From the IMG/VR virus record IMGVR_UViG_3300020468_000006, positions 1-61,667 of that record: DNA of 61,667 nucleotides; one strand, 5' to 3'. Both the position numbers and the translations under genes were made by a program. Origin of the DNA: a virus (lineage: Duplodnaviria > Caudoviricetes). This document shows positions 616 to 33,700 of the stretch, in pieces; the stretch's first letter is position 1; each line of letters opens with the position of its first letter. Below the pieces are notes generated by a model, which was given only the letters and a program-made list of their open reading frames with translations, ran no database searches and was not told the origin of the DNA.

Positions 616-650
616 CAGTACAGGGACGAAATCAGAGAAACCACACACAT

Positions 651-9702: not shown

Positions 9703-12700
9703 ATGCAAACTATTAGTTCTGTAAATATATCCGATAGAGTCGAAGGTCAATTACCTGATTTTATCAAGCAAGAAGACGAGCAGTTTGTCTCGTTTCTGTT
9801 TGAGTATTATAAATCACAGGAAAAGACAGGTCGTCCTTATGATCTATTAAACAATATCCTAACTTACTTGGATATTGATGCATATGATCAAAAAGTCTTA
9901 GCGTCTTCTACTGAATTAATAAAAGACGTTGATACAGCAAACTCACTTATAGAAGTTGAGTCAATTGATGGATTTATGGATCGTGATGGATCTGTAATGA
10001 TCGATAACGAAGTAATTTACTACGAAGAGACAGTTCGTGGTCCTGATGCTATCCTAACACCAGGTTTATCACTAGAAGAATTTAATAAAAAGAGACAAGA
10101 ACTAGAAAGTCCATTTTTAGACTTTGATGGGGTCACTACAACCTTCCCACTTAAGTTTCTAGGTACTCCAGTCTCACCAGTCTCAGCAGAGCACTTAGCA
10201 GTCATAGTTTACAATCAAAGTATGATCCCTAATGTGGATTATACGATTAGTGGTACTAATATAACTTATACTGTTGCTCCTAGAGCTAGAATAGGTACTG
10301 ATATAGTTGGTTCTACTAGAATCCTTTATTACATTGGTTTTGCCGACTCTGTAATCAAAGAATTAGTCTTCCCTGCTCCTGCAGGACTTGCAGGTCAAGA
10401 TTCTATGACTCTTGGTTATGATAATCTAGCATATTCACCAATTTCAGAGATTGGTTTGATTATCAACCGTAATGGTCTTCTACTATCACCATATATCGAC
10501 TATGTGTTGACTGATAACAACACACAGATCAAGTATTTTGTAAATATCGCTCCAAACGATATATTTCACATTCGTTCTATCGAATATGTGTCACCTTCTG
10601 TTGGTACTGGTGCAAAAGCGGTTACTCGTGTTGGACTGAATGGAGAAATCGAAGCAATTCAGGTAAAAGATGGTGGTAAGCAATATGAACTAAACTTTGC
10701 ACCTAAAGTTTCTATTACATCGAGTACTGGAACAGGGCGTGGTTCGGCTGCACGAACATTAGTTGCAGGAATTAAAAATATACAGCTAATTAACGGTGGA
10801 CAAGGATACACAGCATACAACCCACCTAAAGTATTAATAACACCACCTACTGATCAGGTAAATGGTAGTGGTGCTAAGGCATCCATCACAGTTGATGATA
10901 CAACAGGTCAAGTTAGTTCTATTCAGATCACTAACTCTGGATCTGGTTATGACTTCATTCCTGCAATAAGTTTTGTAAACCCATCTGGTGCTATCATCAC
11001 TGATCCAACGATTGACTCCGAGGGTAGATTAAATGCAGGTACTATTACTATTACTGATGGTGGTATAGGTTACAGTAATCCACCTACAATCTATATTGAC
11101 GCTGCTCCCACTGACGGAGTTGATGCTGTTGCTGAGTGTACAGTGTCACCCGATGGTGAAATAGTAGCTGTTACTATTACTAACAGAGGTAGAGGATATA
11201 CTTCTGCCCCTAGAGCAAGAGTTGTGCAACCTATTGGTGCTCAAGTTCTAGATGTTACCGTTGCAAACGGTTCTGTTACTAATGTTAACTTATTAACTGG
11301 TGGAAAGGGATATACTGATGCTCCATCTGTTTATATTGTAGATGATCGTAAAGGACCTCTAGGAGAGTCAATTGGTGGTACTGGTGCAGAAGCAGCAGCA
11401 ACTATCTTTAACGGTGAGATTACAGATATCAATATTATATCATTTGGTACTGGATACTCAACTACAGAACCACCTAGAGTATACATCGCAGAACCCTTGT
11501 CAGCACAGTCATCTTGCGACGTTGGATTTGGGGAAGTTACTGGTTTTACCATTCTATCATCTGGTAGAGAGTATCAACCATCTTCATTAAAGGGATGTGC
11601 TAGAGGTGTATCTGAAATTGTAGAATTTGATAAGTTCGGTAATCAAATATATGCAAAAGAGTCACAACTAAGGCAAAGTAACCATACTACTGGTGCTATT
11701 GTACATAACCTTGATGCAAAGATCATTACACAGGTATTTGACAAGTTCCGTCGTCAATATATGCCTACAATCAACATTGACTATACTCAAGTCAACCCGA
11801 TTCAGGTTATTAAGACAATTAAGGACTTCTATGCATCTAAAGGTACGAAGACTGCTGCACAATATCTCTTTAAGATCTTATTTGGTGAAGAAGTTGATAT
11901 ATTCTATCCTAGAGACGAACTAATCAAACCATCTGATGCTTCTTGGGTAGTTGACACTATTTTACGTGCTGAGTTGATTTCGGGTGACCCTGCAAACTTA
12001 TCAAATGCTCAGTTAGTCCAGAATGCTGATGAGGTTGACCAAAATATTAAAGATGCTACTGTATTGATCGAAAACGTCATTTCTATTATAGAAGGAACTG
12101 ACGTAATCTACGAATTAGCAATATCTGAAGAAACTTTAACAGGTACCTTTAAGATTCCTTATAAAACAAGTCTTGTAGAACCTTTATCAACAACTGGTAA
12201 CATAATAACTGTTGACTCCACTATTGGATGGCCAGAAAAGAACGGAACTATCATAATTAACGATCAAGAGACTGTACAGTATAAAGATAAGTCACTTAAC
12301 CAGTTCATTGAGTGTACTAGGTCTAAAAATGGTGTAGTAGAAGACTGGGATCCTGGCACATTAGTTTATTCAGACATATTTGTCTATGTAAACCAAGGAT
12401 TAGCTAACGAAGTCAAATTAAGAGTCTTAGGTATTGCTGAAGCGGGTACTACAGTCCTAGAAGACAGTGGTTCTTACTATCTACCTGGTGACAAGTTAAA
12501 TGTTGCTGCTTTAGGATCAACTGACATTGATGAGAGACTACAATCATGGTTATATAACGTTAAGAAGTTAATTAGTGTTACTAGTATCACACCAGGTGGT
12601 ATAAACAACCAAACTGCAACTGTTGTTTGTTCTAATGCTCATGGTTTGCTTGTAGAAGACCAAGTTACCATCTATGGTGCTAACCCTGCTGTTTACAATG

Positions 12701-15700
12701 GTACATTTGAGGTTACATCTCGTCTAAACGACTTTACCTTCTCTTATAATATACCTACCCCAATGGATATCGTTCCACAGGGTAATATCTTACTTTCTGT
12801 TGACTTAAACAGAGGTAAGTCACAAACATCCACTATTAATGAAGTAGTTTCACTGTTTACTTCTAATATACAGAATGCTTTCTTTAATCAAGACTATGTT
12901 TATGTTGCAGCGTCTGGATTGCCCAACTATAAGATAGGTCCTTTCCAAGGTTCTGCTATTATACCAGGAAACCAAAGAAAACTACTTAGATTCCCTAGAA
13001 CAGTAGAAACTATTTCTACAAGAACAGCAATTGGTGCTAACAACCCAATTGGTGCTTGGGTTAACGGTGTTTCTGCTTGGTCTTACAAATCTTCCGAATT
13101 TGTCACCTTTGGTCCTCTTACTGCTATCAATATTACCAATTCAGGTATAGATTATGATGCAGGATCAAAACCAGCTCTAGAAATCACTGGTGGTGGCGGT
13201 ACAGGTGCTGCAGCGACTGTTACTGTTAATGGTTCATTAAGTAATGTAGAAGTTTTAACTGAAGGTACTGGATATACATCTCAACCTCTAATTTCTATCG
13301 TTGGTGGTGGTGGACAGGGTGCAACTGCACAAGCAGTTGTTACGAACGGTAGAGTAACAAGAATTCTAGTAGAAAACGCAGGAACTGGATATACATCACA
13401 ACCTACAATATCAATCACTGGTGGAAATGGTGCAGGTGCTACTGCTACTGCCTCTGTACGAGGTGTAATCAGTGCAGTTACACTAAGTAGCACAGGAAGT
13501 GGTTATACGTCTACACCGACCATAAAACTCAATTCTGGAGAAGGTGCATTAGCACAACCAATCGTTATCAACGGTAGAATCGTATCTATTGCTATTATTA
13601 ACTCTGGTTCAGCATATACATCAGCACCTACTGTTTATATTAATGGTGATGGATTTGGTGCTACTGCAACTGCAGTTATTGGTACATTAGGTGAAGATAA
13701 GGGTAAAGTTATCTCAGTATCAATTACAAACAGAGGTGTTGGATATACACAGGGAATGACTGCTGTTAGAATGGAAGCAGTTGGTCAATTAGCAACATTT
13801 ACTGCTGATGTCTTCCAGTGGAACAAAAACGTAGAATATCAATTAGATCCTGATCCTGCTAACCCCACAGCAACTAATGCTGACGGATCTCTTAAGAAAA
13901 GGTATGACATAGCAAGAGGATATGTATTTACTGGATTTAATAACCAGTATGGTGGAGAATATGCTCACGTTTCAGATCCTAAAGAACTACGTTATGTAAT
14001 TGGTGATAATGTATTCCTAAACCCAGAAACTAATCGTTTCCAAGAAGTTCCTTCTAATATAGACCATTCTCCTATCATTGGATGGGCATTTGATGGTAAC
14101 CCAATCTATGGTCCTTATGCATACATCGATCCTACTGATCAGAACAGTGGTATTAGAAGAATGCGTTCTTCTTATAAAATTAAGACAGAACTTATTTTTG
14201 ATGAAGATACAAACCCAACTCCTGCTAGAATAGATGGTCCTTTATTAGCAAATTACCCTGCAGGATACTTTGTTAATGACTATACCTATACATTCCAACA
14301 AGGTGACCTAGATCAGTACAATGGACGTTTCTGTAAGACCCCAGACTACCCTGCAGGTACATATGCATACTTTATAACCATTGATGAGTCAGATGCAGGT
14401 TTACCTGTCTTCCCATACATCATTGGATCAAGTTTTAACTCAGTTGTTGATACTTGGAACCTTTCACTTAATGCTGTACAAGAAAACATCCCACAAGACG
14501 TTGCACGTTTCAGAGATCCATACGTTAACGTTGATATTGACATTGATCGTCAACCTAACCAAGAATCAGATTCATTTGTAACTGAGAAAGAAGGAGATCT
14601 TCTAATATTCGAAATAGAAGATATAGATGGTGATGCAATTATATCTCCTGCTGAAATAGCAACATTACAAGCAATAACTGAAGAAGCAGCACTACAGATC
14701 TATGATTACTTCCCTAGAGTATCAGCTGAGTCAAGAGTTGATATCGAAGTTGATACAACGACTAAATTTGAGTCTGCACAGATAGATGGATTCGTTGTAG
14801 AGAATGCAGGTGTATCTTATCAGGTAAATGACACTTTATTCTTTGATAACACAGGAACAGACGGGTTCGGGGCTTCTGCCATTATTGAGTCCGTCCAGGG
14901 CCGAACAATAAGTGCATATACAAAGGAAATCATTAATGATGTCCCACATGGTAAAATAACCACTGCAACTGCACATGATCTGATTGCACAAGACCAAATA
15001 ATCGTAAATTCCAAGGTTATTACTGATAACACTAATAAACGTTATTATACTTCAGTTGTTACTGGTATTGAGACTATTACAGTGACACAAACTGGTATTG
15101 GTTATAATACACAGATTCCACCAACATATGAGATCATTACAACCACTGGACAAGACGTTGCCTTTAATATTGTCCTAGATGAGACAACTGGTAAGGTTGG
15201 AAACGTTAATATCGTTAATAGTGGTTTTGGATACGATACTGCTAACCCTCCACAGATTAGAGTCTCTCATCCACAACAATACAAGAAAACTTACTACTGG
15301 TTATCTGAATATTACGAAGATACCGATAAAATCAACATTATCGATTCTAAAGTTGCAACAGACCGCCATATTTACATTTGTGGTGAATTAACTCAAGTTA
15401 ATGGTGATACTTCTGCATTCCTTGCTAAATTTACTGATTTGGGTGTTTTAGTCTGGGATAGAACACTTATTTCAGTTACTACCAATAAAAAGGCACGTTG
15501 GAAGTCAATGTACCTAGATCAGACTTCTGCAGAGAATCATTTGATCTATATCATCGGTGAAACCGAATCTCAGACAACTGCGACTTATAATCCCGATATT
15601 TTAGTTGCTAAGTACGAATCTGGTTATGATAACGCTAATGCACCTGAAGGAATCGTTAGATGGCAAAAAGAGATAGCTGGTGTCTCTGGATCCGCTAGAA

Positions 15701-18700
15701 GAGACTATGCGGGTGATATTCATCTAGATGATGAGCAAAGAGTCTATATTTGTGGTTGGACTGATACTAACTCTCCAGATCCTAATGATATCTGGGTTAT
15801 GCAACTTAATAACCTAGGTGACGTTGTTGAGAAGCGTAAATTTGCTTCTGATGCTGAAGGGGAAGAAATGACCCAATTATATTTCATTGGTAACAATAAA
15901 CTTCTATTTACTGGTATTGATTCTGATAATCAAGATATTATCTTTGGTGAGATGTCATATGATGGTGCAAACATAGAATTAACATATACTAAGAGACTTG
16001 CTGTTTCTGGTGGTAATGTACAACGTCCTCGTTTTGTTCTTGATGAATGGGATGATTTGTTCTTTATCTGTGATATGTTTAATGGAACTAAGAACTATGG
16101 TATAGCATTCTTTAAGATACCTTTAGATCAACTTTCCACTAACCCATCTACTCCAACATACACATATTCTAAGATTATTGCTCCTAGTGGTACTTTCGAG
16201 TCAATCAACCATGCAGGAATTAACATGGATGTATTTGGCAACGTTAGTATCGTTGCTGACCTTAAGTATGCAGATAATGACCGTCAAGCGGTTGTTATGA
16301 ACTTTAAGTATGATGGAACTCTATTAAAGTCTACTAATATTGCAGATACCAATGATATTGGTATGATAACTAGAACTCACCAAGTTGATAACTCTGGTGA
16401 TGTCATATTAACAAGTAATAAGCAACTTCCTGTACAAACATATGTTGCTCGTTTCGAGAATGAAAATGATTTAGATGAGGATAGCACAAAGCAAGCACTT
16501 GTAACTACAACCTTCTCCACACCTGCTAACGCAGCACATAATACATCAGAATATAAGTTTGGTGCAGGATCAGTTAAGTTCTCTGGTGGTCCTACTAACA
16601 TGAAGGCAGCAGGTGCAGGTCTTACAGGTAAATGGACTACTGAAGTGTGGTCACTATTGACTGCATCTCATGCATCTAACAACCCTAAGGTTGAGATGTT
16701 CACTATTGACGATGCAACTGGTAATAGTCTTATCGTTACTGTTGATGGTAATGCATCTAGTGGTAACTTAGGTAAGATTGAGATGACCATTGCACCTCAG
16801 GGTGGTGGTGGATCTACAACTGCTTCTGTTGGTTCTACATACTGGACTACTCTACAAGATGCAGCATGGCATCATTGGGCAGTTGTTAAAGACGAACCTA
16901 CACTTGGTTCTTACTCATACTCTGTATACTTTGATGGTATACAAGTTTGTACTGCTACTGTAACTACTAATATTGGTCTTAATGATCTTTATGTTGGTGC
17001 TAATAAGACAACTCCTGCTACAGCAAACTGTTTCTTAGGTAGTATTGATGACCTAGTTATCGATCCAAACACTGTATATACTGGTGCATCATTCACTGTT
17101 GCTACAGAGAGATACAGAATTACTTCTAATGATTCTAAAGTTAACCTTATTAAGTTTGATAGACAGCATGATAAGAGAGGTGCATATACTGCATTCAGTG
17201 AAACAACACATACTAAGGCATTATCATTTACAGAAACTACTGCTATTAATGTCAATACTCTTTCTAATCCAGTCATTACTACATGGAATGTAGGTGCATC
17301 TGGTTTACAGATTCTTGATTACTCTGATGTTTCCTCTCAGTTAACACCAGGTACTTACTCATTTACTAGTGCAATTCATCAGTATGCATCTAAGACTTCT
17401 ACTATACCATCTCCACTTGGTAGAAAAGTCAAGGTTACTGCTGTTCCAATGGCGAAGTTCTACATTAGAGATGCAGGATATCAGAAGATTGACCTAGTTA
17501 AAGAATTTACATTTAACCAAGCAGTTAAGTTCACTAAGGGAACTTTAATACAGCAAAAGAATGAACAGGGTATTATTCAGGCATATGGTACTATCGTTGA
17601 GGTTCCAACTGGTACATTAGACAATCCTGGTCTTGGTAACAAGTATAAGGTTGGTAAGATCTATGGTAACTTTAATAATGATACAACTGATCTATATCAG
17701 AATGATACAGGTGAAGAGAATACAATTGATGGAGTAGTATTTGAGCAACCAAGATTGCAAGATCAGTGGGTAGCAAGTAAAGCATATACTACTGATACAC
17801 AGGTTTATAATGCAGGTAAGATATACAAAGCAACTAACACAGCTACATCTGGTTCTACACCACCTACACATAATATTGGTATTGTAACTGACGGTTCTGT
17901 AACGTGGCAGTATATTAGTGCTGCAGGTGCTATACAGGTTGACTTGTCTGAGCATCCATGGCCAACACCTACAGAGACACTTTGGACTGCTAACAGATCC
18001 TTCTCTGTCAATGATTTAGTTTACTTTGCTAGACAGAAGTACAAATGTACTGTTGCAGGTGTAACAAGTAGTGTTGCTCCTACTCATACTACTGGTACTG
18101 CAACTGATGGTACAGTAACATGGGAATGGCAATCTACATATGATCCATTATCAAGTTATGCTAGGTTCAGAACCTATGATCCTGGTGATTATGCAGTTAA
18201 GATTCTTGAGGTATATCCTGAGTCTGATTTCATTGTCGGTGATGTAATTTCGCTTGGTGGTAGTGTTACCGCAGGGCCAAACACAGATAACCCCAAAATC
18301 GCTGATATCAATGGAGTTACAACTGTTAAGAAACTAGAATTAACTGTTAGACTTGACAAAGATATTGTTAGAACTGCTGAAACAAGAACTGATCTTATAT
18401 ACTGCTCTGCACTCATTGCACATAGATTTACTGCAGGAGATATCCTATTTGTTACTGGATTCCAAGGAACTCAGTTTGATGGATCATTCTTCGTAGAGGA
18501 AATCTTCTCTTCTAGAGACTATACTTATAGGATGAGAGCAAATGCTGTTTCTGATCCTACATTTGATAACAATGCTATTGCTAATGTTAAGATATCTTCT
18601 AAGCACCCAACATTATTACTAGTAAGGAATCATTCATACATCTTTGACTTGAGTGATGCTTCTAACCAAGGATATTTCTTATCATTCTCTCAAGATAACC

Positions 18701-21700
18701 AGTTTAAACTAGAATACTCATTTAACGTTATTGAGAGATCTGGAACACCTGGTCAATCATCTACAACTGAAACTCCTACAGTTAAGTTTACAGTTGGTGG
18801 TGAAGTAACTAATATCACATACTACTTCGATCCTAGTAGAACACTTTCTACCAATTCTCCAGTTGGTGCTAACTCCTTTATTGATGTTATCAAGACACCT
18901 TATGATGGTACATTTACTATCTCAAATGTTATTAGTGATACTGAGTTCAGATTCCCATTAGATCAAGAACCAGAATTTAATAGTGCTGAGATTGGTGAGG
19001 ATGATCAAGATAGACCTAACTCTTTCTATTCTACAACGTCTACTAAAGCAATTGGTCCTATCAATACTATTAAGTTGATATCAGCAGGTGGATTCTACAA
19101 AAAATTACCGATCGTTTCTGACATTGCTTCTAATCGTAAGATCGAAAGAATTGTTATTGCTAACGGTGGTACTGAATATGCACCTGGCGTATATACACAG
19201 GTTCCTATTATAGGTGATGGTGAAGGTGGTCTATTAAACATTACAGTAGAAATAGATCAAGAAACTGATTCTGGTACTATTACCCAAGTTGCTCTTATTG
19301 ATCCAGGTTCAGGTTATACTACAGGTTCTGTTGATGTAGATGCTATACCAGGAATTTTAGGACAGACTCTATCTGGTTCTGGTGCAGAACTAACTGTTGT
19401 TATACCTGCTGAAGGTACAGGTGCTTCTGTATTCTTAACTGGTACACAGATTGGTAAGATCAAAACTCTTAAGAACAATGAATTTGGTTATGGTTACTCT
19501 CATGACTATACTCTACGTCCTGAGATTGCATTCCCAGTTAACTTACAACTCTTTAACACCTCAATACTTTCACAGATCAAGATAACTAATCCAGGTGCTG
19601 GCTATACATCTTCTCCTGTAGTTGTTATCTCTGGTGGTGGTGGAACTGGTGCTGATGCAGAAGCAATTGTTAAGAACAACAGGCTATCTGAAATTATTGT
19701 TAAAGATCCAGGTTCGGGATACAGTTCAGAACCAACTGTTCTTCTAAAATCAGAATTTACATACGTTGTTAACTTAGACCTTAACTACTTACAGTTTAAC
19801 TTCCCACACGGTATTACAACTGGTGCTGAGGTACAGTTTAGGGCAGAAGATATTGGTACTACAGTCGGTGAACTACCAAAACCAAGTTCAGTTGGTTTGA
19901 CATCACTATCTTCCACTCAGACATACTACGCTATTGCAGGTGATGCAAACTCTCTAGAATCTGATCAGTTACGTTTTGCTTTGACACCTGCTGATTCAGC
20001 GTCTGGTAACTTTATTACATTCCTAACACAAGGTGAAGGTAGACAGGTTCTTCTTACTCAAGTATTTGGTGGTACTGCTAGTGCTGTTGTTGAGACTTCT
20101 AGATTCTTAGCATCTGAGCAAGTATTCCAAGGTGAGTCTTTCGAATTAGCAAATGCTTTCGGTACAGTTTCTACTAACGATGGATGGCAGATAGGTCCTA
20201 AGATTCTTAAGGTTGTTAATCCTACAGGTGACTTCGTTGCAGGTGGTAAGGTTCAGGGTGTTATATCTCGTGCATCTGGTATTATTGATAACGTACAGAT
20301 CGCTAAAGGTATTCTAAACATTGATGCTCTTACTAGAACATCTGGTAGATTTATTGATGACGTTGGTAAACCATCAGAGATTGTACAGAAGATTCAGGAC
20401 TCTTACTTCTATCAGAACTTCTCATATGTTATTAAGTCACAAATTCCAATTAACCGTTGGAAGAAGCAGGTATTAGAGAATAACCACCCTGCAGGATTTA
20501 ATATGTTTGGTCAGTTAGAACTGACTGGTGGTAAGGACGTTTCTGGACGTAAGATTGGTACTGAGTTTACTAAACAGGTTAATATTAATGAGTATACAAA
20601 TGTCAACCAGATTACATCATTTGGTGCTGCACAACCAATCTATTCTACATTTAACAACTCTGAAGTTCTATTCAGAAAGAAAAGACTAACAAACTCTGAG
20701 GAAATCTTAACATCTATCGTTAAGAAGTTAGATAATATCTCAAGTCAGTTTGATGGTTCTACTAAGGCATTTAACCTTACTGTAGAAGGTGATCAGGTTA
20801 TTATTAAAGAGAATCAGATGTTGGTCACCTTAAACGGTGTTATCCAGTCACCTGGTACTGCATATCAAATTGTTGGTAATCAAATCGTATTTGCTGAACC
20901 ACCAAGACCAGATTCTAAGGTTGTTTATAGAAACGTAGATATACAGATATTACAGATTACTAAACTGAATCTAAACACTATTGGTGGTATATTCCCATCT
21001 ATCGGTGATTTTGTTTCTGGATTCACTTCTAATGCTAGTGCTAGAGTTGTTGCTACAGGTGCAACCAGTATTGACGTTATTGACATCACTGGTGGTCCTT
21101 TCCAAAACAATGAACGTATTGATGTAAATAGAACTGGATTTAGTGCATTGATCGGTAGTTTTGCACCTATCAACCAAGATACAATCTTTGAGTTTGCAGA
21201 AACAGTTACTAAGGTTTCATTAACAGCAGAGACTGCTAAAATCGAAGAAACTAACTTAGATCTTGATGGTAACATTGATTCTTCATTAGTTCTATCTAAG
21301 ACATCTGGTACTGCTGAATTTGAGACTGGTGTTTATAATATTCTCTTAAATGACTTTATATACTCTTCAGCATCAAATATTGCTGCTAAGATTGTTAGCA
21401 TATCTCCATATAGAGATCCTATCAGTTCTATTCAGTTAACAAGTGGTGCTGCCTTCTTAGAAGGTGATCAGGTTACTGGTGGTAATTCAGGTGCTGTGGC
21501 AGAGGTTGTACGAGTAGATGATGCTTTAAATCCTCCTGTATTGTACTTTGTTGCTAAATCAGTTGCATCATTCGTTAGTGGTGAAACAATTACTGCAGGT
21601 GCTATTAATGATATTGTTGTTGGAGATATCACAAGAGGTGACGTTGTTGACACTCTTATCATTAACAAAGGTTCATCATTCTTTGGATTAGTATTTGAGA

Positions 21701-24700
21701 GACTTATATCTCTTTCTAACCAGAATATCATCCTTGATAACATTGCTCAGACCACAATTACCCCTACTACTCTAACAAATGCAGCAGACAGAATTAATGC
21801 TGATTTCTTAGATTATGAAGAAGTAAGATCTACTGAGATCGAATATAACAACTTATCTGGTGGTGCTCTTGCTAATGATGATGTTATGCGTTCTGTTAAC
21901 GTAACTTATGGTAATACTACAGATGACGCTCTTAACAGATATAAGGATGCTGCTAGAAGTATAAGGAACAATAAACAAGAAATTATTGATTATGCAACAT
22001 CACAGATTGCAATTGACTATCCTGACTTCTATTATACTGGTGAAGCAGAAACTGCACCTTGGGGTAGATTTAGAGATGGTTATCGTCTAATACAGAAAAA
22101 CAAAGCATGGATCGTTGCTAAAGCATATCAGGACATGGTAGTTCAGTATCCTGGTTCTACAATCCCTAGTGCTACAAAATGTAAGAGAGATATCGGATAT
22201 ATGATCGATGCTCTATCAAGAGATACAGGATGGGGTGGAACAGTATATACACGTAAATTTATCCAGAAATACTTCTCTGCTGATGGTTTAACATATCTCT
22301 ATGTTAATGCTCAATCTAACGAGACAGTTTATGCATATGAGCAAGCATATGGATATATGCAGAATGCTATCCAAAACGATCTAACTGGATCTGAAACTAT
22401 CGATGCTGTTGCATATACCAAGTATAACGAGAGAACTAGTGGTCCTAACAACAATAGTGGAATCACTGCTGACCCTAATCCTGGTGGAAACTATGGAACT
22501 ACAGGAACTAACACTACTAACAATGGTACTGACAATTGTGCAGATGTACAAGCAGCACTACAAACTCTCTTTAATAACGTCAAGGAAGTATTAAATGCAG
22601 GTTCATTAACAGATCTTATTGACCTATCATTACCTGATGCTAATTACACTGCTAAAGAAATTAAGTGTAATAGAGACACAGGATACTTTGTTGATGCTAT
22701 TGCAGATGACTTAGATGGTGATGGTAACTTTGCAATCGTAACATTTACTAAAAAATTCTTTGATGCAAGCGGTATACCAATCAACAATGGTCTTCCAGAA
22801 ACAGAAGAAGCAATAACTGCATTTAACGCTGCTAAAGATCTATGTAAGCGTGCAATGAGAAACCTATTGTATAGTCAGACATTGACTACAAAAGGTTATA
22901 ACCTCAACGATCCTACAACTTACTCTGCTCCATACTTAGATGGTGGCGGTGGTACTACTGCACATTACTATGATCCTAACTATGCATCAGGATCTAATCA
23001 ACTTGATACAAACTGTGCAAACGTAGCATCTGCTATTGATACATTATCTAACCTTGCTACAACTGCATTTACTGGTGCTCAGTTTACTGCGTCAGGTGCA
23101 ACATACAATGCAGCAACTGGTGTGATGGTATTGACTATCGGTACTCACAGTTTAACAACTGCAGACACTGTTAGAATCGATGCTAATTCATTGACATTCA
23201 CATGTCTAATGGATGGTAACACTGCTAATAAAACATATCCAAGATCAACTGACCCTGCATATGAAACTCAGCGAGCAATCACTGCAACTACAAATAATAC
23301 AATCACTATCAACGTTGGTACATCTCCTCTAGTAAACCATGATGTTACTGGTGCAAATTACAACGTAACTTCAGGTGATTTACAATTAACAATCGGTGCA
23401 CATAACTTAGAAGTTGGAACTAGCATCAAGATTGCTACTGAATCATTAACATTCCAGTGTGCATATAACGGTGGTGGTACTAGCGTATATCCTCGTGCTT
23501 CAGGTGCTAACACTTCTAGTGGTGCTGACTATGCATATGACACTGCACTACCAATTACATCCAAAACTGGAACAACAATCACAGTTAATGTTAACGGTGG
23601 ACAGGGTGCTATCTCTAACACTGATGCCCATACATTTGTATCTGCAACAGCAGGTGCTGTTGTTTCTGGTGGTAACTATGCACATACCTTTGTAAGTGGA
23701 GTTGCTAACTCTATCAAGGCAGGTGGTAACCTTGACAATATTAATGCATTATCAGTTATATCTGATGGTACATACAGAGAGAATGAGAACATTCGTGTTA
23801 ACAAGTATGCCTATAAGGATAGAGGTGGTTCTGGATTCTTCGTTCCTGGTGATACTATTACAGGTGCAAAATCTGGTGCAAGTTTCGAACTTAAGGGTGC
23901 TAACTCTGGACTAAAATGGTTGTATGCTCAAACTGTTTCTGGAATACTAGAAAATAGAGAGTATATTACTAACACCAAGATGGTTAATAATCTAGGTGGT
24001 AGTAATGTCAACATGACACCTAGCAGTGCAGCGTATGATCCTCTTACTGGTCAACTAACACTTACTAGTACTGCTCATGGTTATTCAGTAGGAAATAAAA
24101 TCTCTCTTGCTAACAACTGCTTGACATTCAGTTGCGATATGGACGGTGGTAATGCAAGTAAGACATATCCAAGAACAACTGATCCTGTAGGACAAGGACA
24201 ACAACTTGATATCATCAGAACAACTGCAGATACATTTACTGTTGTTGTTGGTTCATCACCTATAGTTGAGAAAAATATAACAGGTGCAAACTATGATCCT
24301 GTTCTAGGTGAGATGCAGATCAATGTTGAGGGTGGACACAATCTTAACGTTGGTGAGAGTATTAGATTAAAACCTAATTCATTAGTCTTTACTTGTGACA
24401 CTGATGGTAATGCTACTGAGCACTCTTATCCTAGGGCATCTGGAGCAGGTAACCCTTCAGGTGGTGCTGACCCTGCTTACAATACTGCTGTTGCAATCAC
24501 TGCAGTTGGATTTAATACTTACACAGTAACTGATGCAACATACACTCCTCTAGATGGATCATTAGTTCTTAGTATTGTTAATCATGGAATGCAAAGTGGC
24601 GACAAGATTAAGATCGTTGATGGATCAATAAGATTTACATGTGCTAAAGATAATAATGCAACTAATCATGATTATCCAAGAACATCTGACCCAATCTCAT

Positions 24701-27700
24701 ATCAGTGGTATGATATTACTGTACTAGATGACAATAACATCGGTGTTAATGTTGGAGTATCTTCTGACACATCTGTACATACATTCGTATCTGCAAATTC
24801 TAACGGAGTACAAAAACAAGATGGCACTATTTTTATTAACGTTCTCGGAGGCTCTGCTCCTGCATCTGATACTTCTCCACACACTTTCATAAGAGCTACA
24901 GAGGGTGCTTTGATGACTGGTGGTGGATACACCCATCAGTTCGTATCAGCAGTAACTAACGGTGTTACTGTTTATCCTGCTAGTGTAAGACTTACCAACA
25001 CTCAAAAGCGTGCAGGTACTAAGTCTCTAGCATTTGATTCTGGTGCATACTTATCTTATGGTCTATCAGATATACCTGCATGGGGTACATCAGACTTTAC
25101 TATTGAGTTCTGGATCAGACCTACCACAGCAATGAATAGTACAAAGTATCTTGTTGATCTTCGTACAAGTGGTGCTACTGAAACTAACTCATTTAGTCTA
25201 TACATTGATAGTGGTAATCTAAAATGGAAACTCAATCAAACTGATCAAATAAGTGGTGCTCATGGTATGAGTCCAAATGTTTGGTATCATATTGCATTAA
25301 CAAGAACAAGTCAGATATTAAAACTTTGGGTCAATGGTTCTCAGGTAGGTAGTGACTACACAGATGCTGCTACTTACTATGAACGTAAGATGACTATTGG
25401 TGCTGAGTGGAATGGTCAGAATAACTTTGTTGGATTCATGGATAACTTCGTTATCTACCCAACAACTTCTAAGTACACTGCAACATTTACACCTCCTACA
25501 GTATTCCCAACATCAACAACTGACATCTCATTCTCTATGGACAATGAGTTGCCATTGATTATGAGCAACCAAGAGGCATATGCAACTTATACAGGTACTA
25601 CTAACTCTGCTGCTCAAGCAACTAGTATTGATTATGTTAACCGTGAAGTTATTGTTGAGGAGATTGAGATATCAAGAGACACACAACGTGCTTGTGCTGA
25701 TATCTTAGAACTTAACAGAGCATGGATTGCTGAGACTGCTGTTAATAAGATGAAGGCGAAATATCCTGATCTATTGATGCCTGGTGATACTGCTGATGGT
25801 GTAGGTCCTCAACTTGGTACTAACTTCTGTTTGAGAGATACTAAAGAATTCATTCTTAAAGGTGTTATCGAAGATTTACGTTATGGTGGTAACTATAATA
25901 GTACACTTGCTGCTAGAAACTACTTAACTGCATACGAAGGTCTAGATTACATCGCTAATGAAGTATTGATGTCTATCTACACTTATAGACTTCTTGCTCC
26001 AATCTGTAATTATGTTCTTACCACAACAAGCACTGATCTTAAGACATACGATGGAACTAAGTATACAGAGATACTAAGAATTCCTAATAACTTCTCATCC
26101 CCTGCTGCTCAATCTATACAAGATGAGATTACAAAACTATGTGATGATATTGGAGATGTTATAGGACCAACAGGTCAAAGATATAGAGACGCAGGTGATC
26201 TTCTATGGTTAAACAGAGATGTGATTGCTGCTGAAACTGTTGGTTGGTTGGAAGCAACGTATCAAGCAAATATTAACGGTACGACTTATGACTTCTATCA
26301 GAATCCTAATGCAAATCCTAATAAGTGCAGTTACGAAATCAAGCAATACATTATTCCTGCTGTTATTGCTGACTTGGTTACAGGTGGAACTTCTGCTATG
26401 CAGTACAACGCAAGCAAGTTCCTCAACAATAATAACGAACTTTATTCGGTTGACAATGAACTAAGTGCTGTAATTGATGCTTACAAGTTTGTTAAAATGC
26501 TTTGCGAGAAAGCAGTTAACAACACACTACTAACAAATGGAGTAGCATCTGGTGGTTTAGGTATTCCTTCTGCTTATCAGGATGACTACTATACAATGCA
26601 GTACACAACTTTAACAGTCTATAGAGATCCTACAATCACTATTGACCCAGAAGGTTATGATCCATCTCGTACAGCAAATGACAGACTTCTAGATACTGCT
26701 GAACTTCTAGAGAAGAATGCTAATGTAATTGCTTGGGAAGCAGTTCACACAATGAACGATCTTTCTAAGTTCCTTAACTTTACAGTTCCTGGTGGTGCTC
26801 AAAACTGTGTAGATGACGTTGTAGATATTATTGGTGCTGTTGGACATGACTTAAGAAAGGGTGGAAACAGTAAGACATACGAAGCTGCTAAACTATACCT
26901 TGACTCTGAAACTAATAATCTTATCCAGTTAAATGGTCGTCAGCATACTCATCAATTTGTAAGAGCAGAATTAAATGCAATCCAATCAGGTGGTACTTAC
27001 AATCATACATTTGTAACTTCATCAACTAATGCTGTTACTGCAAATGGTGGTGCACAATTTACTCCATCAAATGTTGTCTATCAACCTGCAACTGGTAACT
27101 TAATTCTTACCATGCCTAGTCATGGATTGACAACTTCTAATACTATTACTATTGCAGAGAACGGATTCACCTTCACTTGTGGAATGGATCAAGATGAAAG
27201 CAATCATACTTACCCACGTAAAGGTGATCCTGCATATGGCAAATCCATTGCTATCACTGGATATACACTATCTACAATTACAGTTAATGTTGGTGCTTCA
27301 CCTCTCGTTAACTATAACGTTTCTCAAGCATCATACGATGCAACTAACGGTGAATTAATATTAAGTATTGGTGCTCACCAATTAGCAGTAGGTAAGAGTT
27401 TCAGATTTAAGCAAGAGTCATTAGTATTCACATGTGATAGAGATGACTATGCAACTGAGCATGCTTATCCAAGATCTACTGATCCTACTTTTGACACTGC
27501 TGTAGATATTAGTGCTGTAGGAACAACAGCACATACTGCTACAAGTGCTGCATACGACCCATCAACAGGTGTTATGACATTGACTCTTAATGGTCATAAC
27601 TTAGCAGGAGAAACAACACACACTGCAACTGATGCTGCATATAATCCTGAGACAGGTATCTTAACTCTAACTGTTGGCAACCACGGATTTGCTTCTGGGG

Positions 27701-30700
27701 ATAGTGTAAAACTTGCTGATAATTCAGTTACATTTACATGTACTTTAGATAGTAATGCTACAAACCATGCATATCCAAGATCAACTGACCCTGCATCAGG
27801 ATCATTCTTACCAATCCGTAACGTAACTCAGAATACATTTGATGTACAAATATTAGAAACAATCCCATCTACTAACGTAACTGCACATACATTCGTATCT
27901 GCAACTACTAATGGAATTACAAAAGCAAATGATTATGTTTGGATAGAAGAAGATGCAGTTGTATTTACATGTGGTCAAGATGGTAATGGATCAAACCATG
28001 CATATCCAAGACCTCAGGATCCTGCATACAAAGCGTGGTTACCTATAACAAGAATCGATGCTAATAATTTCTCTGTACAGACTTTATCAACTGCACCTTC
28101 CACAAACACAACTCCACACGTATTTGTATCCTTCGCAACTGATGGACTTAAGAAACAAACAGGTACGATTACTTGTAATGTAGGTGTTGCACCTGGCGAA
28201 GATGCTGCAGGTATTAGTGTAATTAAGATCGCAACTGAGATTGCTCAGTTAACAATGAGAAATGCATTTGGTCGTGAGAACCTTTACATTTACAATCCCG
28301 ATGCAGGAACTGGTGATGGTGATGGTATAACTGGTGGTGGTTCAGAATCTATTGATAATGTCGATGTATCATCTTATGAAAGAAATGCTGTTAAGGATAG
28401 ATTCATTAACGCTGCTGATGTAATCGATAGAAACATTAGAGTTATTGCTGAAGAAACTATTGCTGCTGCTAAAGCACAGTATCCTTCACTTCAGATTCCT
28501 GGTGGAAATATTAACTGTGTACATGACTTAACTGACTTCTTATATGCTATCCAGTGGAACTTACGTCACGGTGGTAATAACAAGGTCTTCCATGCTGCTG
28601 AATACTATGTTAACGAAGGTCTAACACATGCTACTGAAGCAACATGGATTATGAATTATGCTAGAGATCTAGCAATTCAGGTAATGAGAAATGAGTCTCT
28701 TGCTCTTAACTATGGTGCTGATCCTTCATATGATACTGCTATTGATATTGTTGATATTGCATCTACATCTCACACAGCAACCAATGCTGCTTATAATGCA
28801 TCAACAGGTCTTCTAACCTTAACTATCTCAGGTCATGGATTTGATGTAGGAAACAGAATTAACATTGCTGACAACTCATTGACATTGACTTGCTCAATGG
28901 ATAATCAGAGAAGTAATCATGTATATCCAAGATCTACTGACCCTGTTAGTGGACAATGGTTACCAATCATTTCTAAGACTAATGACACATTTGTTGTTAA
29001 CGTTGGTACATCTAGACTTATTAAGTTTACACCTACTCAGGTCATTTACGAACCTAACACTGGTAACTTAATCCTAACAATAGGACCACACAAGTTAACA
29101 ACAGGAACTAACATCAAGATATTAGGTAACTCATTAACATTCACTTGTACTCAAGATGCTAATGCTACTAACCACACATATCCTCGTACAACTGACCCAA
29201 TCTATGATGAACCAGTTGCTATTGTTGGTACTACTGCTAACACTGTAACAGTTAACGTTGGTACATCTGTAATTAAGAACTATGATATTCATGGTGCAAA
29301 CTTTAACCACACAACTGGTAACATCGTTCTTTCAGTTGGTCCTCATGACTTTAGAACTGGACAGAGTGTTAAGTTAGCAACTAGTTCTTTAGTGTTTAGA
29401 TGTGATGAAGATGCACAAGCAACTGATCACGTATATCCTCGTGCTTCAGCACCTAATGGTCCTGACCCTGCTTGGAATACAAGCATCAATATTGACGCTG
29501 TTGGATACACACAGCATACACCAACAAATGCAACTTATAATTCATCTACTGGTGTTGTACAATTAACTCTTGCTAATCATGGATTAACAGGACACACAAC
29601 TCATACTCCAACCAATGCAGTATTCACACCTGCTGATGGTAAGATGGTTGTTACTCTTGCCAATCATGGTTTTGCAAATAACGATAGAGTTAAACTTGCT
29701 ATTGGAGCGATAACATTTACTTGTGCTTTGGATAATAATGCAACCCTTCATCCATATCCTAGACAGTATGGATCTAATGCACCTGGTGGATCTGACTATG
29801 CATTCGATAAGTGGATACAAGTTACTAACGTAACTCAAGATACATTCGAAATCAACGTTGGTATTTCCTCTAACACTACAACTCATACATTTATATCTGC
29901 TCTTACTAATGGTCTAACACATGCAGGAGACATGGTTAAGGTTGCAGAAAATGCACTAACATTTACATGTACTAAAGATGGAAACTCTGCTAACAAATCA
30001 TATCCTAGAACATCTGACCCATCATACGATGAGTGGTTACCTGTTACTAAGATTGATAACAATACTATTAGTATCGTTGTAGGTGACTCTGGTCCTAATG
30101 ATCAATACACTCACTCATTTGTATCCTTCGCATCTAACGGACTTTGGAAGCAAGACGGAACAATAACATTAGATGTTAACGATGGATCTGGTGCTATATC
30201 TAACCAGACAAACCACGTATTCCAGTATGCAGTATCTGGAGCATTGATAACTGGTGGTAACTATACACATACATTTAAGTCTGCAACTGCAGGTGCTGTA
30301 CAAACTGGTGGTAACTACACTCATGAGTTTGTATCTGCAACAGCAAATGGAATTAAGAGACAAGATCCTGCAGGTAATGTAACATTACAAGTTGGAACAT
30401 CTGGTCCTAATGATCAATACACTCACGCATTTGTAAGTGCTAACTCTGGTGCTTTGATAACTGGTGGTAACTATCAACATAGATTTGTTACTGCAGAATC
30501 ACAAGCAGTGATAACTGGTGGTAATTATCTACACACATTTGTAAGTGCTGCAACTAACGCAGTTGCTGTTGGTGGATCTCCTACTAACTTAACTCCTAAT
30601 GGAGCAACTTATGATGGTGAAACTGGTAAGTTAGTTCTATCATTTGCTTCAGCACATAACTTAACTAATTCCAATACTATCACAATTGCTGATAATGGAT

Positions 30701-33700
30701 TAAACTTCTCATGTACATTTGATGGTAACTCAACAGTTCATGGATATCCAAGATCTACTGACTATGCATCTGGACAGGTATTACAAGTAACTGAATGGAC
30801 AACAAACACAATTACAGTTAACGTAACTACAACTCCGATCGTTAACTATGATGTTACTAATGCAACTTATGATGCAGGTACAGGACACTTAGTATTAGAT
30901 ATTGGATCTGTAGGTGTTGCTACACTTAAAGGACCAACAGCAGGATTGACTGCTACTGATGCTTCATACGATCCATCAACAGGTGTCATGACATTGACTG
31001 TTACAGGTCACAATATGGCAAATGGAGACAGAGTTAACATTGCTGATAATTCATTAACATTCACATGTACACAAGGTTCAGGTAACCACTCTTATCCAAG
31101 ATCATCTGACCCTGCAAGTGGAAACTGGTTAGATATCTCTAACGTAACTACAAACACATTTGATGTACAGGTTCTAGAAAATATTCCTTCTACTAACACT
31201 ACAACTCATACATTTGTATCTGCAGTAAATGGTGGAATTACTAAGGCAGGTGAGAACATTAGAGTTAGAACTGACTCCTTGACATTTACATGTTCACAGG
31301 ATGATTACGCTACAACTCACACATATCCTCGTGCTAAAGATCCTGCATTCGATCGTCCAGTACCTATCGTTGCTAAGTCTGGTTCTACAATCACAGTTGA
31401 TGTTGGACAGTCACCTATCGTTGCTTACACACCAACAAATGCTACCTATGATCCTGCAACTGGATTCTTAGTATTGACTATCGGTGCACACAGTCTAGTT
31501 AATGGAACTACTGCTAAGTTAGCACCTAACTCATTGACATTCACATGCTCAAGAGATGGCAACACTGCACAGAAGACATATCCTAGAAGTGGACATAAGT
31601 TTAAGCAATCATTCTATAATGATCTAGATTACTACCCATACAATAAGGGTGATTATGTTATCACTGCTGATACTGAGAGTCCTCTATGTGCTGACGTAGC
31701 ATCTGCTATCACAACAATGATGGCAATCGTTACTGATTCTATTGCAACTCCTGCATCTCTAACAGATGGTACAATCACTAAGACTCTACCAACAATCTGG
31801 CCAGTTAAGTATGCACCTGAAATGGTAGAACGTGATGTTAGCATTACATACTATGCTGATGCAGGTGATAATTGGAACCAGACATGCCCTAACTCTGCTG
31901 CAGCGATAGAATCATTAATGAACATCGTTGTTGATACTATCAAGTTAGCGAAAGATGGTGGTGGTAGTCATCTAGATGCTATTGAGAAAGTAGAACCATG
32001 GACATTTAACAGACAGTATCAGACATGGACATGTTATAACGTTAAATCTTCTATCCATACATTATTCGATGTATTGATGAAGACATTATCAGGTGGATCT
32101 AAATCTGATCTTAAGTCTGCACGTCATATACTCTTTAATAAGCATGCGATAACTGCTAGAGCATATGAGAGAACAACTAACCAATATCCTGGTACTGCTG
32201 CAACACTTCAGTTTGCTGATGATATGGTTCATTCATTATTGTATGACCTTAACACAGGTGGTAACCAAGGTATGCTTAAGTTGGTTAACTCATGGTTCGA
32301 TGGTGAGGGTAACTTTATTGCATTCCAAGATGTTGTTAGACAGCACTTACTCTTCTACACAACACGTATTCGTGAATATGTAAAACGTGCATTATATGAT
32401 CAGAACAATACTACTCAGTGGGATGGTTATGATATCTACAAGGATACAACCAACACTGCTGCTATTGATGCTAGATTTGAGTATGAGTGGGAAAGTACAG
32501 AGTTTAGAATTGACAGTTCACTAAACCTTGCATACCATGGTCTAAACAGATCTGCACCTCCATCAAATAACCAAGTTACATTCATCAATAGTACTGATGC
32601 TACTAACTTACAGAATCTATATGATGAAGGTGAAGATTATAATACTGATCCAGAACTAGTTCTATTGACACCAACTATCGAAGTTGGATTCGAAAGAAGA
32701 GAAAGTGTTGTGAGAATTACACGTCCTAACTTCTTCTCTCGTGGTGACATCGTTGCTTATATCCCTGCCTCTGGTCAAATAGAACCTGCATTACAAGATC
32801 AAGATTACTACTATGTTCTAAACGCTACTGCAGAATGGTTTGAGATTGCTCGTGAGATTCGTCATGATGCAAGATACAGACTCTTCGAAGTTGATAGAAA
32901 TCTAACAGGTCAGCAAAGAGTACAAACAGTCGTACGTCAAGGTATTATCGTACCGACTGCAACATACGCAATGCGTGATTTGGATCAACCAATTAGTGCA
33001 GGATTTAACACTGCTGACATTCTTATTGGTGCAACATCTAATGCAACATCTGAGGTTATTAGAATACGTAATAACGAAGCAGATATCATTAAACTATACT
33101 ACAAGTATAACATCGATGCTGCTACAGGTAGATTCACAAATGGTGAAACAATACAGCAACAAGGTGCTACATCTAACAATGCTGTAGTTGTTCAGACTTC
33201 TGTATTGACTGGTGATGGAACTGACGAAGGTTGGATTTATGTAGAATCATTAAATGGTGCGTTATCAGATAACGCTGTTATGGAGGGAGTAACTTCAGGA
33301 CTAACTGCATCTATAAACGGAACACCAACAACTCGTATGTTGATCAACCTTAATAGAGGTCAGTTTGCTGCAGGTGAGAAAGTCTTTAATAAATCAAATG
33401 CTGCTACAGCAGATATAGTTTCCTACGAGAACTCAGCAGGTGCATTGGTAGGTAATACTGGTGGACGTATAACAATCGATATCGAAACTATACAGGAAGA
33501 CTTTACTGACGGTGATATAATCTATGGTTCTATTACTGATACAATCTTAGACATTGCTAATATCACTGCAGGTGGATTCGAAGCACTAGAACTTAATCAG
33601 TATGTACATGCTGTATCAACAATAGAATTAGACATCTCTAGTGTTGTTCGTGATGGTGGTTACAATGGTGACTTTAGTGCAGGTGACACAGTTTACTTAC

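Follow-up and report, generated by a model that had tools for sequence, protein, structure and literature searches.

The question raised by this locus is whether the helical repeats inside a giant baseplate protein of a cyanophage are relatives of the light-harvesting phycobiliproteins (PBPs) of the host, and whether they may still carry pigment. The window analyzed, the whole stretch of 61,667 nucleotides, belongs to a P-RSM6-like T4-type cyanomyovirus, and all repeats are found within a single open reading frame on the plus strand (9703..35445) that encodes 8580 amino acids. In the list of open reading frames it lies immediately 3' of a gp6-like gene (7594-9699), the position of the baseplate wedge gene gp7, with gp10-like (37074-38573) and gp8-like (40454-41989) genes as further neighbors. 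The giant protein matches PF23786 (Baseplate_wedge) at residues 696-740, with 29.9 bits at a cut-off of 27, as well as phrog_701 and phrog_2885. The gp7 protein of T4, with a length of about 1000 residues, shares the place after gp6, the Baseplate_wedge match and phrog_2885, but PBP-like domains are absent from it.

Nucleotides 21937-32637 of this reading frame comprise seven very divergent PBP descendants with a globin-like fold of helices B, E, F, G and H. About seven helical repeats had been proposed in the initial annotation, and an HMM of the repeats retrieved seven full copies (D1 to D7) and one weakly matching fragment with a helix-B-like segment alone (21937..22050, residues 4079-4116; HMM positions 3-40, E 0.046). 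The other plus-strand reading frames of at least 80 residues in the window yielded no further copy. As evidenced by phmmer searches of each copy against its own protein, the repeats are paralogous (D1 and D2, 1e-10; D3 and D4, 3e-8; D5 and D6, 1e-14; D3 and D6, 3e-6), with E-values that were computed for a one-sequence database and are therefore optimistic. All motifs quoted in the annotation were recovered and its eleven cysteine codons are exact (22180, 22666, 25828, 26326, 26806, 28516, 22537, 23014, 31687, 31885 and 32032), but the R..DA..I..N helix described as preceding each repeat is helix B and part of the domain itself.

All features of this region are encoded on the plus strand, and D1, D2, D3 and D7 are contiguous. 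D1 (22063..22602, residues 4121-4300), detected by the HMM and PF00502, contains KC(4160)KRD followed by GGT at the spacing of CpcA, and its last helix begins with NC(4279)ADV. D2 (22537..23085, residues 4279/4301-4461), with KC(4322)NRD and the last helix NC(4438)ANV, lacks its own helix B, and the HMM places the last helix of D1 there. It is separated from D3 by a beta-rich spacer (23086..25677) of F-x-C...YPR repeats that includes a lectin-like Laminin_G_3 domain (residues 5121-5254, nucleotides 25063-25464, E 1.1e-18). D3 (25678..26175, residues 5326-5491) carries FC(5376)LRD, and its last helix starts without a cysteine. In D7 (32107..32637, residues 7469-7645), assigned by the HMM and motif inspection, the attachment motif has lost Cys, Arg and Asp (TLQF for CxRD) and DL..GGN is retained; the sequence LQFADDMVH at 32206 agrees with the earlier description of a seventh repeat without the first cysteine.

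The remaining three domains are predicted to be nested like Russian dolls, each closed by one cysteine-started helix at 31687-32088, as mapped from a model of the insert-free ortholog L137 (pLDDT 78.2, pTM 0.77). The D4 core (26176..26640, residues 5492-5646) provides helices B, E, F and G with KC(5542)SYE and would be completed by a far-off helix H at 32032..32088 (C7444 and residues 7445-7462, TCYNVKSSI). The N-terminal part of D5 (26671..26934, residues 5657-5744), also recognized by the HMM, contains helices B, E and F with NC(5702)VDD; its F-G loop holds insert 1 (26935..28194, residues 5745-6164), after which follow helix G (28201..28257, residues 6167-6185) and, much later, the presumed helix H (31885..31953, C7395 and residues 7396-7417, TCPNSAAAI). 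The D6 core (28396..28764, residues 6232-6354; HMM and ortholog model), with helices B, E, F and G and the motif QYPSLQIPGGNINC(6272)VHD, accommodates insert 2 (28765..31647, residues 6355-7315) in its G-H loop, and its probable helix H lies at 31687..31746 (C7329 and residues 7330-7348, LCADVASAI). The beta-repeat inserts in these two loops are hence 420 and 961 residues long. The first, placed by alignment and repeat motifs, consists of F-x-C...YPR repeats and is missing from orthologs such as L137 and P0002, and the first 400 residues of the second gave no convincing match to PDB sequences. Within the L137 model, ApcB (8imk_G) fits residues 338..502, the D6 core plus the helix at 31687 (Z 12.7, rmsd 1.9, 116 aligned), phycoerythrin alpha (1b8d_A) fits 180..566 with D6 skipped (Z 12.3, rmsd 2.4, 125 aligned), and the globin HemAT (1or4_A) fits 1..618, corresponding to D4 (Z 8.7, 139 aligned). 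The pairing of D4 with the helix at 32032 is the weakest of the three modelled assignments. Of the five cysteine-started closing helices in the annotation the cysteine positions stand, but those at 31687, 31885 and 32032 belong to the nested D6, D5 and D4, respectively.

The relationship to PBPs was assessed at the level of sequence and of predicted fold. Summed over the region 21937-32400, PF00502 scores 41.8 bits (E 1.4e-10) at a cut-off of 22.2. Three of the seven copies match singly, all on the profile stretch 29-91, and none exceeds the Pfam cut-off on its own (D1, 19.9 bits, E 7.4e-4, profile 36-84; D3, 17.0 bits; D6, 14.8 bits, E 0.029), while D2 alone gives no match. A helical repeat that mimics PBP motifs by chance or convergence would be in keeping with these low single scores, with the phmmer search using D6 alone, where two unrelated chains rank first and PBPs make up 5 of 13 rows, and with matches of PF00502 to the E. 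coli control genome at E up to 1. Profile searches are nevertheless specific for PBPs: a 10-copy profile retrieved phycocyanin alpha (2vjr_A, E 5.4e-7) from the PDB, and a 110-copy profile found CpcA (8iml_A, E 2.2e-7), with all 60 of the matches listed being PBPs or fluorescent proteins of PBP size. In hhalign against 139 CpcA/CpcB sequences the probability was 94.3% (E 1e-7, 67 columns), and the cysteine column fell on Cys84. Four of six other family members tested exceed the PF00502 cut-off. The sequence likeness is confined to about 65 residues from helix B to GGN. PBPs also lead the fold matches of the whole domain. The AF2 model of D3 (pLDDT 84.7, pTM 0.85) is closest to phycoerythrin beta in VIA (5aqd_M, Z 15.7, rmsd 2.7, 150 aligned), followed by allophycocyanin, ApcB, phycoerythrin alpha and ApcE at Z 13.4-14.6, with other globins at 12 or below. 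Its top Foldseek rows are all PBPs, with TM scores of 0.6-0.68 over about 165 columns and none at E 1e-3 or better. Together with the restriction of the domain to viruses of PBP-bearing hosts described below, this makes a chance resemblance exceedingly improbable; the seven domains are almost certainly true relatives of the host proteins, and the globin-fold homologues claimed for gp7 in the initial annotation are borne out.

With the PBP alpha and beta subunits (PF00502: CpcA/CpcB, CpeA/CpeB, ApcA/ApcB) the phage domains share the globin-like fold of helices B-H (Z 13-16), the sequence similarity from helix B to GGT, the placement of Cys, Arg and Asp on Cys84, Arg86 and Asp87, the 11-residue spacing to GGT/GGN as in CpcA, and a last helix that begins with a second cysteine, compared with GDC(153)S in CpcB. 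The PBP consensus quoted in the initial annotation is present in retrieved CpcA/CpcB genes, as KCARDIGY-11 residues-GGT in CpcA and as PQLIQPGGN...CLRD and GDCSALMSEI..YFDRA in CpcB. Unlike PBPs, which are free subunits of 160-180 residues, seven copies reside in one virion protein, three of them nested; they have no phycobilisome function, and their bilin binding is putative. The modelled D3 lacks the dimerization helices X-Y, its alignment starting at residue 27 of the chain; identity is about 15-20%, the arginine is often lost, and the L-R-x-x-T-Y stretch downstream of the motif is replaced by I-D-A-I-x-x-D-L. In ApcE (LCM), the core-membrane linker of the phycobilisome, a PBP-like domain is likewise embedded in a very large protein of several domains and has an insertion in a loop (4xxi_A against D3: Z 13.4, rmsd 2.1, 118 aligned), but ApcE has a single such domain, is part of the antenna rather than of a virion and shows no domain-in-domain nesting. 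Its bilin attachment is autocatalytic and occurs at another cysteine. Photocobilins (8j2w/8j2y), globin-coupled sensors and RsbR N-domains use the fold class of D3 for sensing instead of light harvesting (8j2w_B, Z 12.1; sensor globins, 9-12), but they rank below the PBPs and no sequence similarity to the phage domains was detected; they may serve as a mere analogy for a PBP-like domain acting as a sensor.

The giant protein contains only 50 cysteines (0.58%); the PBP-like parts (1229 residues) contain 16, of which 11 occupy the two positions equivalent to PBP attachment sites. A cysteine is present at the site of Cys84 in six of the seven window copies, with Asp or Glu three residues on, and C-x-R-D is complete in three. 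The second cysteine, at the start of helix H in five of the seven, was equated with CpcB Cys153 in a low-confidence alignment that was forced to be global. Among 110 non-identical family copies the first cysteine is retained in 109, and the fourth position of the motif is Asp in 99 and Glu in 10, so that the Cys-x-x-Asp pocket, proposed earlier as a point to check, is conserved. In PBPs, this Asp binds the pyrrole nitrogens. The helix-B Asn is likewise kept in 109 copies. Such retention at about 20% pairwise identity, in a protein this poor in cysteine, indicates that the thiol is needed for a chemical role. A rival reading is a disulfide or redox role, with the domain cysteines pairing mutually or with those of the insert repeats and stapling the extracellular baseplate without any bilin. 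Disulfides are stable in the extracellular surroundings in which virion proteins act, one conserved cysteine occurs in every one of the 17 F-x-C...YPR repeats, and the cysteines of the three nested helices are invariant in 34 orthologs. The second cysteine is however present in only 65 of the 98 family copies in which that position is occupied, and an intradomain disulfide cannot account for an invariant first cysteine if its partner is missing in 33; D3 and all eight S-PM2 copies examined also lack it. The sites moreover match PBP positions 84 and 153, which in beta subunits lie far apart and bear separate chromophores. We consider disulfide stapling improbable.

A more serious alternative, a real possibility although well short of an even chance, is an apo module: a PBP fold captured from the host that serves as a pigment-free, compact helical hub, tolerates insertions and spaces the beta-repeat modules, with Cys, Asp and GGN kept for folding or packing. 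The domain occurs in a structural protein, with up to 36 copies in a single protein of the family, and several of its loops take insertions of hundreds of residues. The pocket arginine, present in 68 of 110 family copies, is lost in 42 (replaced by Asp in 30) and in four of the seven window copies, and D7 has lost the entire site. D57, an Asp absent from PBPs, is near-invariant (108 of 110), suggesting that the family has constraints of its own. To our knowledge, colored or fluorescent cyanophage particles have never been reported. The near-universal cysteine exactly at Cys84, with its accompanying Asp, speaks against such a module.

We give an even chance to the proposition that at least some copies carry bilin. 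Bilins, supplied by the host or by phage HO/PebS/PcyA, would then be joined to the domain cysteines by thioether bonds during protein folding in the infected cell, through phage CpeT, host lyases or autocatalysis, and the baseplate would become pigment-bearing. The pigment-loaded globin modules could act as hubs whose loops display the inserted beta-repeat and lectin-like modules, the probable receptor binders, and adsorption could be gated by a change that light induces at the bilin. This joint reading, PBP-derived and bilin-loaded baseplate domains that display receptor binders and are possibly light-gated, is put forward tentatively, at slightly below even chances, and the view taken in the initial annotation, homology combined with a pigment or light role, is partly supported as a whole. 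Kinship with PBPs and the retained attachment cysteines make pigment and light sensing by a virion testable.

Searches by tblastn of 50,697 phage records retrieved 258 records with D3, 353 with D1 and 355 with D6, every one labelled as cyanophage. Among these records the repeat was absent from phages of non-phototrophs, where an equal frequency had been named beforehand as evidence against the pigment reading, and from gp8-bearing phages of heterotrophs at tblastn sensitivity. Such confinement to viruses whose hosts possess PBPs is consistent with acquisition from the host. The record of the window, a 33%-complete fragment, contains no cpeT, bilin reductase or haem oxygenase, and the nearest complete relative, P-RSM6, has nine domain matches and cpeT. 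Across 29 genomes, a non-random sample with three chosen for having the domain and eight from divergent gp8 rows, domain and cpeT were both present in 19, both absent in 8, and only two (Sf-CH5 and ACG-2014f) had the domain with no detectable cpeT. None of the 19 cpeT-positive genomes lacked the domain, which the apo module does not predict. In a quick gp8 tree the T4-like absences all fall in one 9-row clade and the long-branch ME01, and thus represent about three independent events rather than 29. In one clade (S-PM2, S-CAM3, Syn1, S-MbCM7 and S-RSM4) the giant tail gene that encodes the domain is preceded at 1-4 kb by a co-oriented cpeT. Co-occurrence and adjacency are circumstantial evidence in favor of a pigment or light role. 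T-type lyases are said, in the review PMC10452541, to serve Cys153, the cysteine missing from the eight S-PM2 copies examined even though a full-length cpeT adjoins the gene. P-SSM2 has a bilin reductase and neither cpeT nor the domain, so that, at least there, phage bilin genes serve another use.

Gating of adsorption by light through these domains we regard as doubtful. PMC6628666 describes P-HM2 and P-HM1 as not adsorbing in the dark, S-PM2 adsorption as light-dependent but independent of photosynthesis, and P-SSM2 and P-SSP7 as adsorbing in the dark. The respective numbers of domain matches are 6, 6, 13, 0 and 0. The occurrence of the domain in three light-dependent adsorbers and not in two dark adsorbers, a contrast among five phages of which P-HM1 and P-HM2 are near-identical, circumstantially favors a role in light response.

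The window is a block of baseplate and tail genes from a T4-like cyanomyovirus, with about 82% DNA identity to cyanophage P-RSM6. Its giant open reading frame (9703-35445, 8580 residues) lies after a gp6-like gene and before gp10- and gp8-like genes, all flanking genes being members of baseplate wedge families. The frame matches Baseplate_wedge PF23786 with 29.9 bits (cut-off 27) and PHROG families whose members include giant baseplate and virion proteins of cyanophages, and its ortholog in P-RSM6 and relatives is labelled as a baseplate wedge or virion structural protein. Both the domain and the gp6-like and gp8-gp10-like neighbours of a T4 gp7-type wedge protein are thus in place. The same frame holds a YHYH domain upstream (13945-14385, aa 1415-1561, E 2.1e-28) and a Laminin_G_3 domain of the concanavalin-like lectin type (25063-25464, aa 5121-5254, E 1.1e-18) just before D3, the third of the phycobiliprotein (PBP)-like domains D1 to D7; each may serve to bind carbohydrates or a receptor. 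Elsewhere in the block, a PAAR-motif-like protein of 176 aa (6157-6687; phrog_281, E 5e-23) is encoded just upstream of the gp6-like gene, and two minus-strand frames, 46978-47460 (160 aa) and 54420-55085 (221 aa), lie wholly within large plus-strand structural genes and are probably not genes.

The initial annotation had described about seven helical repeats in this protein, and a hidden Markov model built from the copies recovered exactly seven full domains plus one fragment comprising helix B only. The model found no match in the other plus-strand frames of at least 80 aa in the window. Pairwise phmmer comparisons, calculated for a database of one sequence, related D1 to D2 (1e-10), D3 to D4 (3e-8), D5 to D6 (1e-14) and D3 to D6 (3e-6). 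The quoted motifs and all 11 cysteine codons were found precisely where they had been placed. Cysteine is scarce in the giant protein, with 50 out of 8580 residues, and 11 of the 16 that occur in PBP-like parts fall on the two positions compared with bilin attachment sites, the first corresponding to PBP Cys84 and the second to the start of helix H.

Matches to the phycobiliprotein family PF00502 across 21937-32400 add up to 41.8 bits (E 1.4e-10, gathering cut-off 22.2), a sum of several weak stretches. No single copy exceeds the PF00502 cut-off: the best three score 19.9, 17.0 and 14.8 bits, all of them on profile positions 29-91, and the other four of the seven yield no match. By sequence, D1 to D7 are best described as divergent relatives of the phycobiliproteins rather than as ordinary members of PF00502. 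When single copies were searched against the PDB, nine of 11 rows for D3 were of the allophycocyanin type at a marginal best E of 0.047, and for D6 phycobiliproteins filled only five of 13 rows, with two unrelated chains on top. A profile of 10 copies retrieved phycocyanin alpha with an E of 5.4e-7; with 110 copies CpcA was reached at 2.2e-7, and among the matches listed 60 of 60 were phycobiliproteins or fluorescent proteins of the same size. Direct alignment with hhalign to 139 CpcA and CpcB sequences, collected by motif scan, gave a probability of 94.3% and an E of 1e-7 over 67 columns. In every profile alignment the family cysteine falls on Cys84, the arginine on Arg86 and the aspartate on Asp87. 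The sequence alignment is limited to about 65 residues, and it is the fold that supports the remainder.

The AlphaFold2 model of D3 was obtained with a pLDDT of 84.7 and a pTM of 0.85. In Foldseek its top rows were phycobiliproteins only, with TM scores of 0.6-0.68 over about 165 columns and no E below 1e-3. A structural search against representatives ranked phycoerythrin beta (5aqd_M) first, with a Z-score of 15.7 and an rmsd of 2.7 for 150 aligned residues, followed by allophycocyanin, ApcB, phycoerythrin alpha and the bilin domain of ApcE (Z 13.4-14.6); photocobilins and sensor globins ranked below. Of the comparisons proposed at the outset, the profile searches with the copies and the AlphaFold and Foldseek analysis of D3 placed phycobiliproteins at the top. 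The models predict the globin-like phycobiliprotein fold with helices B, E, F, G and H in D3 and in the nested copies described below. As to the N-terminal X-Y helices, through which alpha and beta subunits join in the monomer, the D3 model aligns from chain residue 27 of the phycobiliprotein onward, and in the model of the nested copies residues 5-30 of the 5aqd_M chain are matched by an adjacent helix. With profile searches at E values around 1e-7 and the predicted fold in agreement, the homology claimed in the initial annotation is borne out, and we have very little doubt that D1 to D7 are genuine phycobiliprotein homologues.

In a tblastn search of 50,697 phage records D3 matched 258 (E ≤1e-3) and D1 and D6 matched 353 and 355 (E ≤0.1), and every record matched by the three queries carries a cyanophage label. 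The repeat was accordingly not found in phages of non-phototrophs, where an equal frequency had been named as an argument for a purely structural role; for comparison, the neighbouring gp8 gene matched 474 records, 10 of them from phages of heterotrophs. A profile search of 1.84 billion representatives returned 1467 proteins with E ≤0.001. The best 150 of these range from 479 to 7903 residues and contain up to 36 matched stretches each, and the PF00502 cut-off was passed by four of six family proteins tested. Three metagenomic members (P0012, P0014 and P0013) have 30-36 matched domain stretches in 4800-6400 aa, far above the copy number in the window. A full-text literature search of the main text of openly accessible papers retrieved no description of a phycobiliprotein-like domain in phage virion proteins.

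Conservation was analyzed in 110 non-identical copies at about 20% identity, seven from the window and 103 from viral contigs, gathered with single divergent copies as queries. The first cysteine is present in six of the seven window copies and in 109 of the 110 family copies. The aspartate of the site is retained in 99 copies and replaced by glutamate in 10 more, the asparagine of helix B occurs in 109, and most copies have a GGN turn. Within the window the full C-x-R-D motif is found in three of seven copies, and aspartate or glutamate in six. The pocket arginine is kept in only 68 of 110 copies, with aspartate in 30 and histidine in five. The second cysteine begins helix H in five of seven window copies and in 65 of 110 in the family, 12 being gapped at this position; in a forced global profile alignment, of low confidence, its column falls on Cys153 of CpcB. 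An intradomain disulfide had been raised as an alternative role for the two cysteines. The frequent absence of the second residue while the first is nearly invariant means that such a bond cannot explain the invariance of the first.

We know of no substrate that has ever been identified for a phage CpeT. As the record of the window is a 61.7-kb fragment (33% complete), the absence of bilin or lyase genes from it says little. A set of 29 complete genomes, 28 named cyanomyoviruses and the podovirus P-SSP7, was searched with the domain profile and the Pfam CpeT model. Five had been chosen by adsorption phenotype, 13 were classical isolates taken blind to status, three were known to bear the domain and eight were divergent gp8 rows; a gp8-based sampling of IMG/VR gave 80 loci, nearly all of them Syn9-like fragments, and none was used. 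Domain and cpeT occur together in 19 genomes and are both missing from eight; two have the domain without a detected cpeT (Sf-CH5 and ACG-2014f), and none has cpeT alone. Fisher's test gives a naive p of 1e-5 when the 29 genomes are treated as independent. On a quick gp8 tree, the absences among the T4-like phages cluster in one clade of nine rows and the long-branch ME01, so that only about three independent events underlie the pattern. The co-occurrence with the lyase gene, which the initial annotation had suggested examining, is found within this limit. P-SSM2 has a bilin reductase, yet neither cpeT nor the domain.

In the clade of S-PM2, Syn1, S-RSM4, S-CAM3 and S-MbCM7, a giant tail gene with the domain is preceded at 1-4 kb by a co-oriented, full-length cpeT; in the remaining genomes the two are separated by tens of kilobases. 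These five genes cover all 181 Pfam positions (E 1e-35 to 1e-43), and the shorter cpeT of Syn9-like and P-HM phages (about 135-165 aa) gives a weak match in two pieces. The second cysteine is missing from all eight S-PM2 copies examined, which counts against a simple model in which CpeT serves this residue. Note that the S-PM2 RefSeq entry NC_006820 annotates 16 tRNAs within 165928-177267, an 11.3-kb CDS named 'short tail fiber' that is an open frame containing PBP-like domains; this looks like a problem of annotation coordinates. The text of the P-HM2 light/dark transcriptome paper does not mention cpeT. Many cyanomyoviruses carry cpeT but not the other genes of the host cpeESTR operon, and passages of Sullivan et al. 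(2010, PMC3037559) term its role 'unresolved'; the presence of bilin synthesis genes in some, even on phycobilisome-free Prochlorococcus hosts, is called 'a mystery' there.

An invariant cysteine at the canonical site, the conserved aspartate and the cpeT pattern all favor attachment of a bilin to the PBP-like domains, and the loss of the arginine in many copies and the observations on S-PM2 and P-SSM2 speak against it; on balance we consider the question evenly poised. According to sections of Liu et al. (2019, PMC6628666), darkness prevents the adsorption of P-HM2 and P-HM1 but not that of P-SSM2 and P-SSP7, adsorption of S-PM2 is light-dependent and independent of photosynthesis (citing Jia et al. 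2010), and light dependence may stem from host receptors or from phage tail fibres. The domain profile matches six times each in P-HM2 and P-HM1, 13 times in S-PM2 and not at all in P-SSM2 and P-SSP7, a correspondence among five phages, two of them near-identical, that is a lead and not a test. In a possible mechanism, the PBP-fold domains of giant baseplate and tail proteins would receive bilins while still in the infected cell, with phage CpeT as the lyase dedicated to this step. On absorbing light, these bilins would act as a switch for the inserted receptor-binding modules, and this could be the basis of the light-dependent, photosynthesis-independent adsorption of S-PM2, P-HM1 and P-HM2. 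Light-gated adsorption through the PBP-like domains seems to us rather unlikely, and we are slightly more skeptical about the complete scheme, in which the baseplate of most T4-like cyanophages would be a CpeT-loaded, pigment-bearing photoreceptor underlying light-dependent adsorption. A phage protein with conserved bilin-attachment sites in the adsorption organelle would join the three questions of cpeT, the bilin genes and light-dependent adsorption, so that standard co-expression, mass-spectrometric and adsorption experiments could address them. Should no pigment be bound, DNA for a host light-harvesting protein has still become a building block of the virion.

D4, D5 and D6 each lack their own last helix, and three lone helices starting with cysteine are found at 31687, 31885 and 32032. 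The relatives P0002 and L137 are devoid of the big inserts, and in L137, an ortholog 54% identical to the window, the 641 residues from D4 to the third of these helices were folded together with 34 orthologs (pLDDT 78.2, pTM 0.77). In this model ApcB aligns to residues 338..502, the core of D6 together with the first of the lone helices (Z 12.7, rmsd 1.9), phycoerythrin alpha to 180..566, corresponding to D5 with D6 skipped (Z 12.3, rmsd 2.4), and a globin to 1..618, or D4 around D5 and D6 (Z 8.7, the weakest of the three). These discontinuous alignments imply the nesting order D4[D5[D6]], and from the L137 model and the alignment of orthologs of 26140-32127 the same order is predicted for the window. 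It would represent a natural example of three mutually nested globin domains with inserts of hundreds of residues. The alternative that a closing helix simply opens a further, degenerate repeat was rejected, as the models assign the three to D6, D5 and D4, each as the helix H of its domain.

As mapped from the ortholog model, the F-G loop of D5 accommodates a first insert of 420 residues (aa 5745-6164) and the G-H loop of D6 a second of 961 residues (aa 6355-7315). In some of the aligned orthologs an F-x-C...YPR repeat interrupts the B-E loop of D6 just ahead of the first cysteine, so that at least three different loops of the PBP-like fold tolerate inserts. The spacer between D2 and D3 and both inserts are occupied by 17 copies of a beta-rich repeat, about 85-100 aa long, at 23086-31647 (motif starts aa 4499-7280), each with one conserved cysteine within an F-x-C...YPR..DP motif. 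The repeat has no match in Pfam, and a PDB sequence search with the first 400 aa of the second insert returned nothing convincing. At the DNA level, Tandem Repeats Finder detected a single 54-bp repeat, at 30455-30563 with two copies and 78% matches; it belongs to the second insert and encodes repeated GGNY.HTFVSA units.
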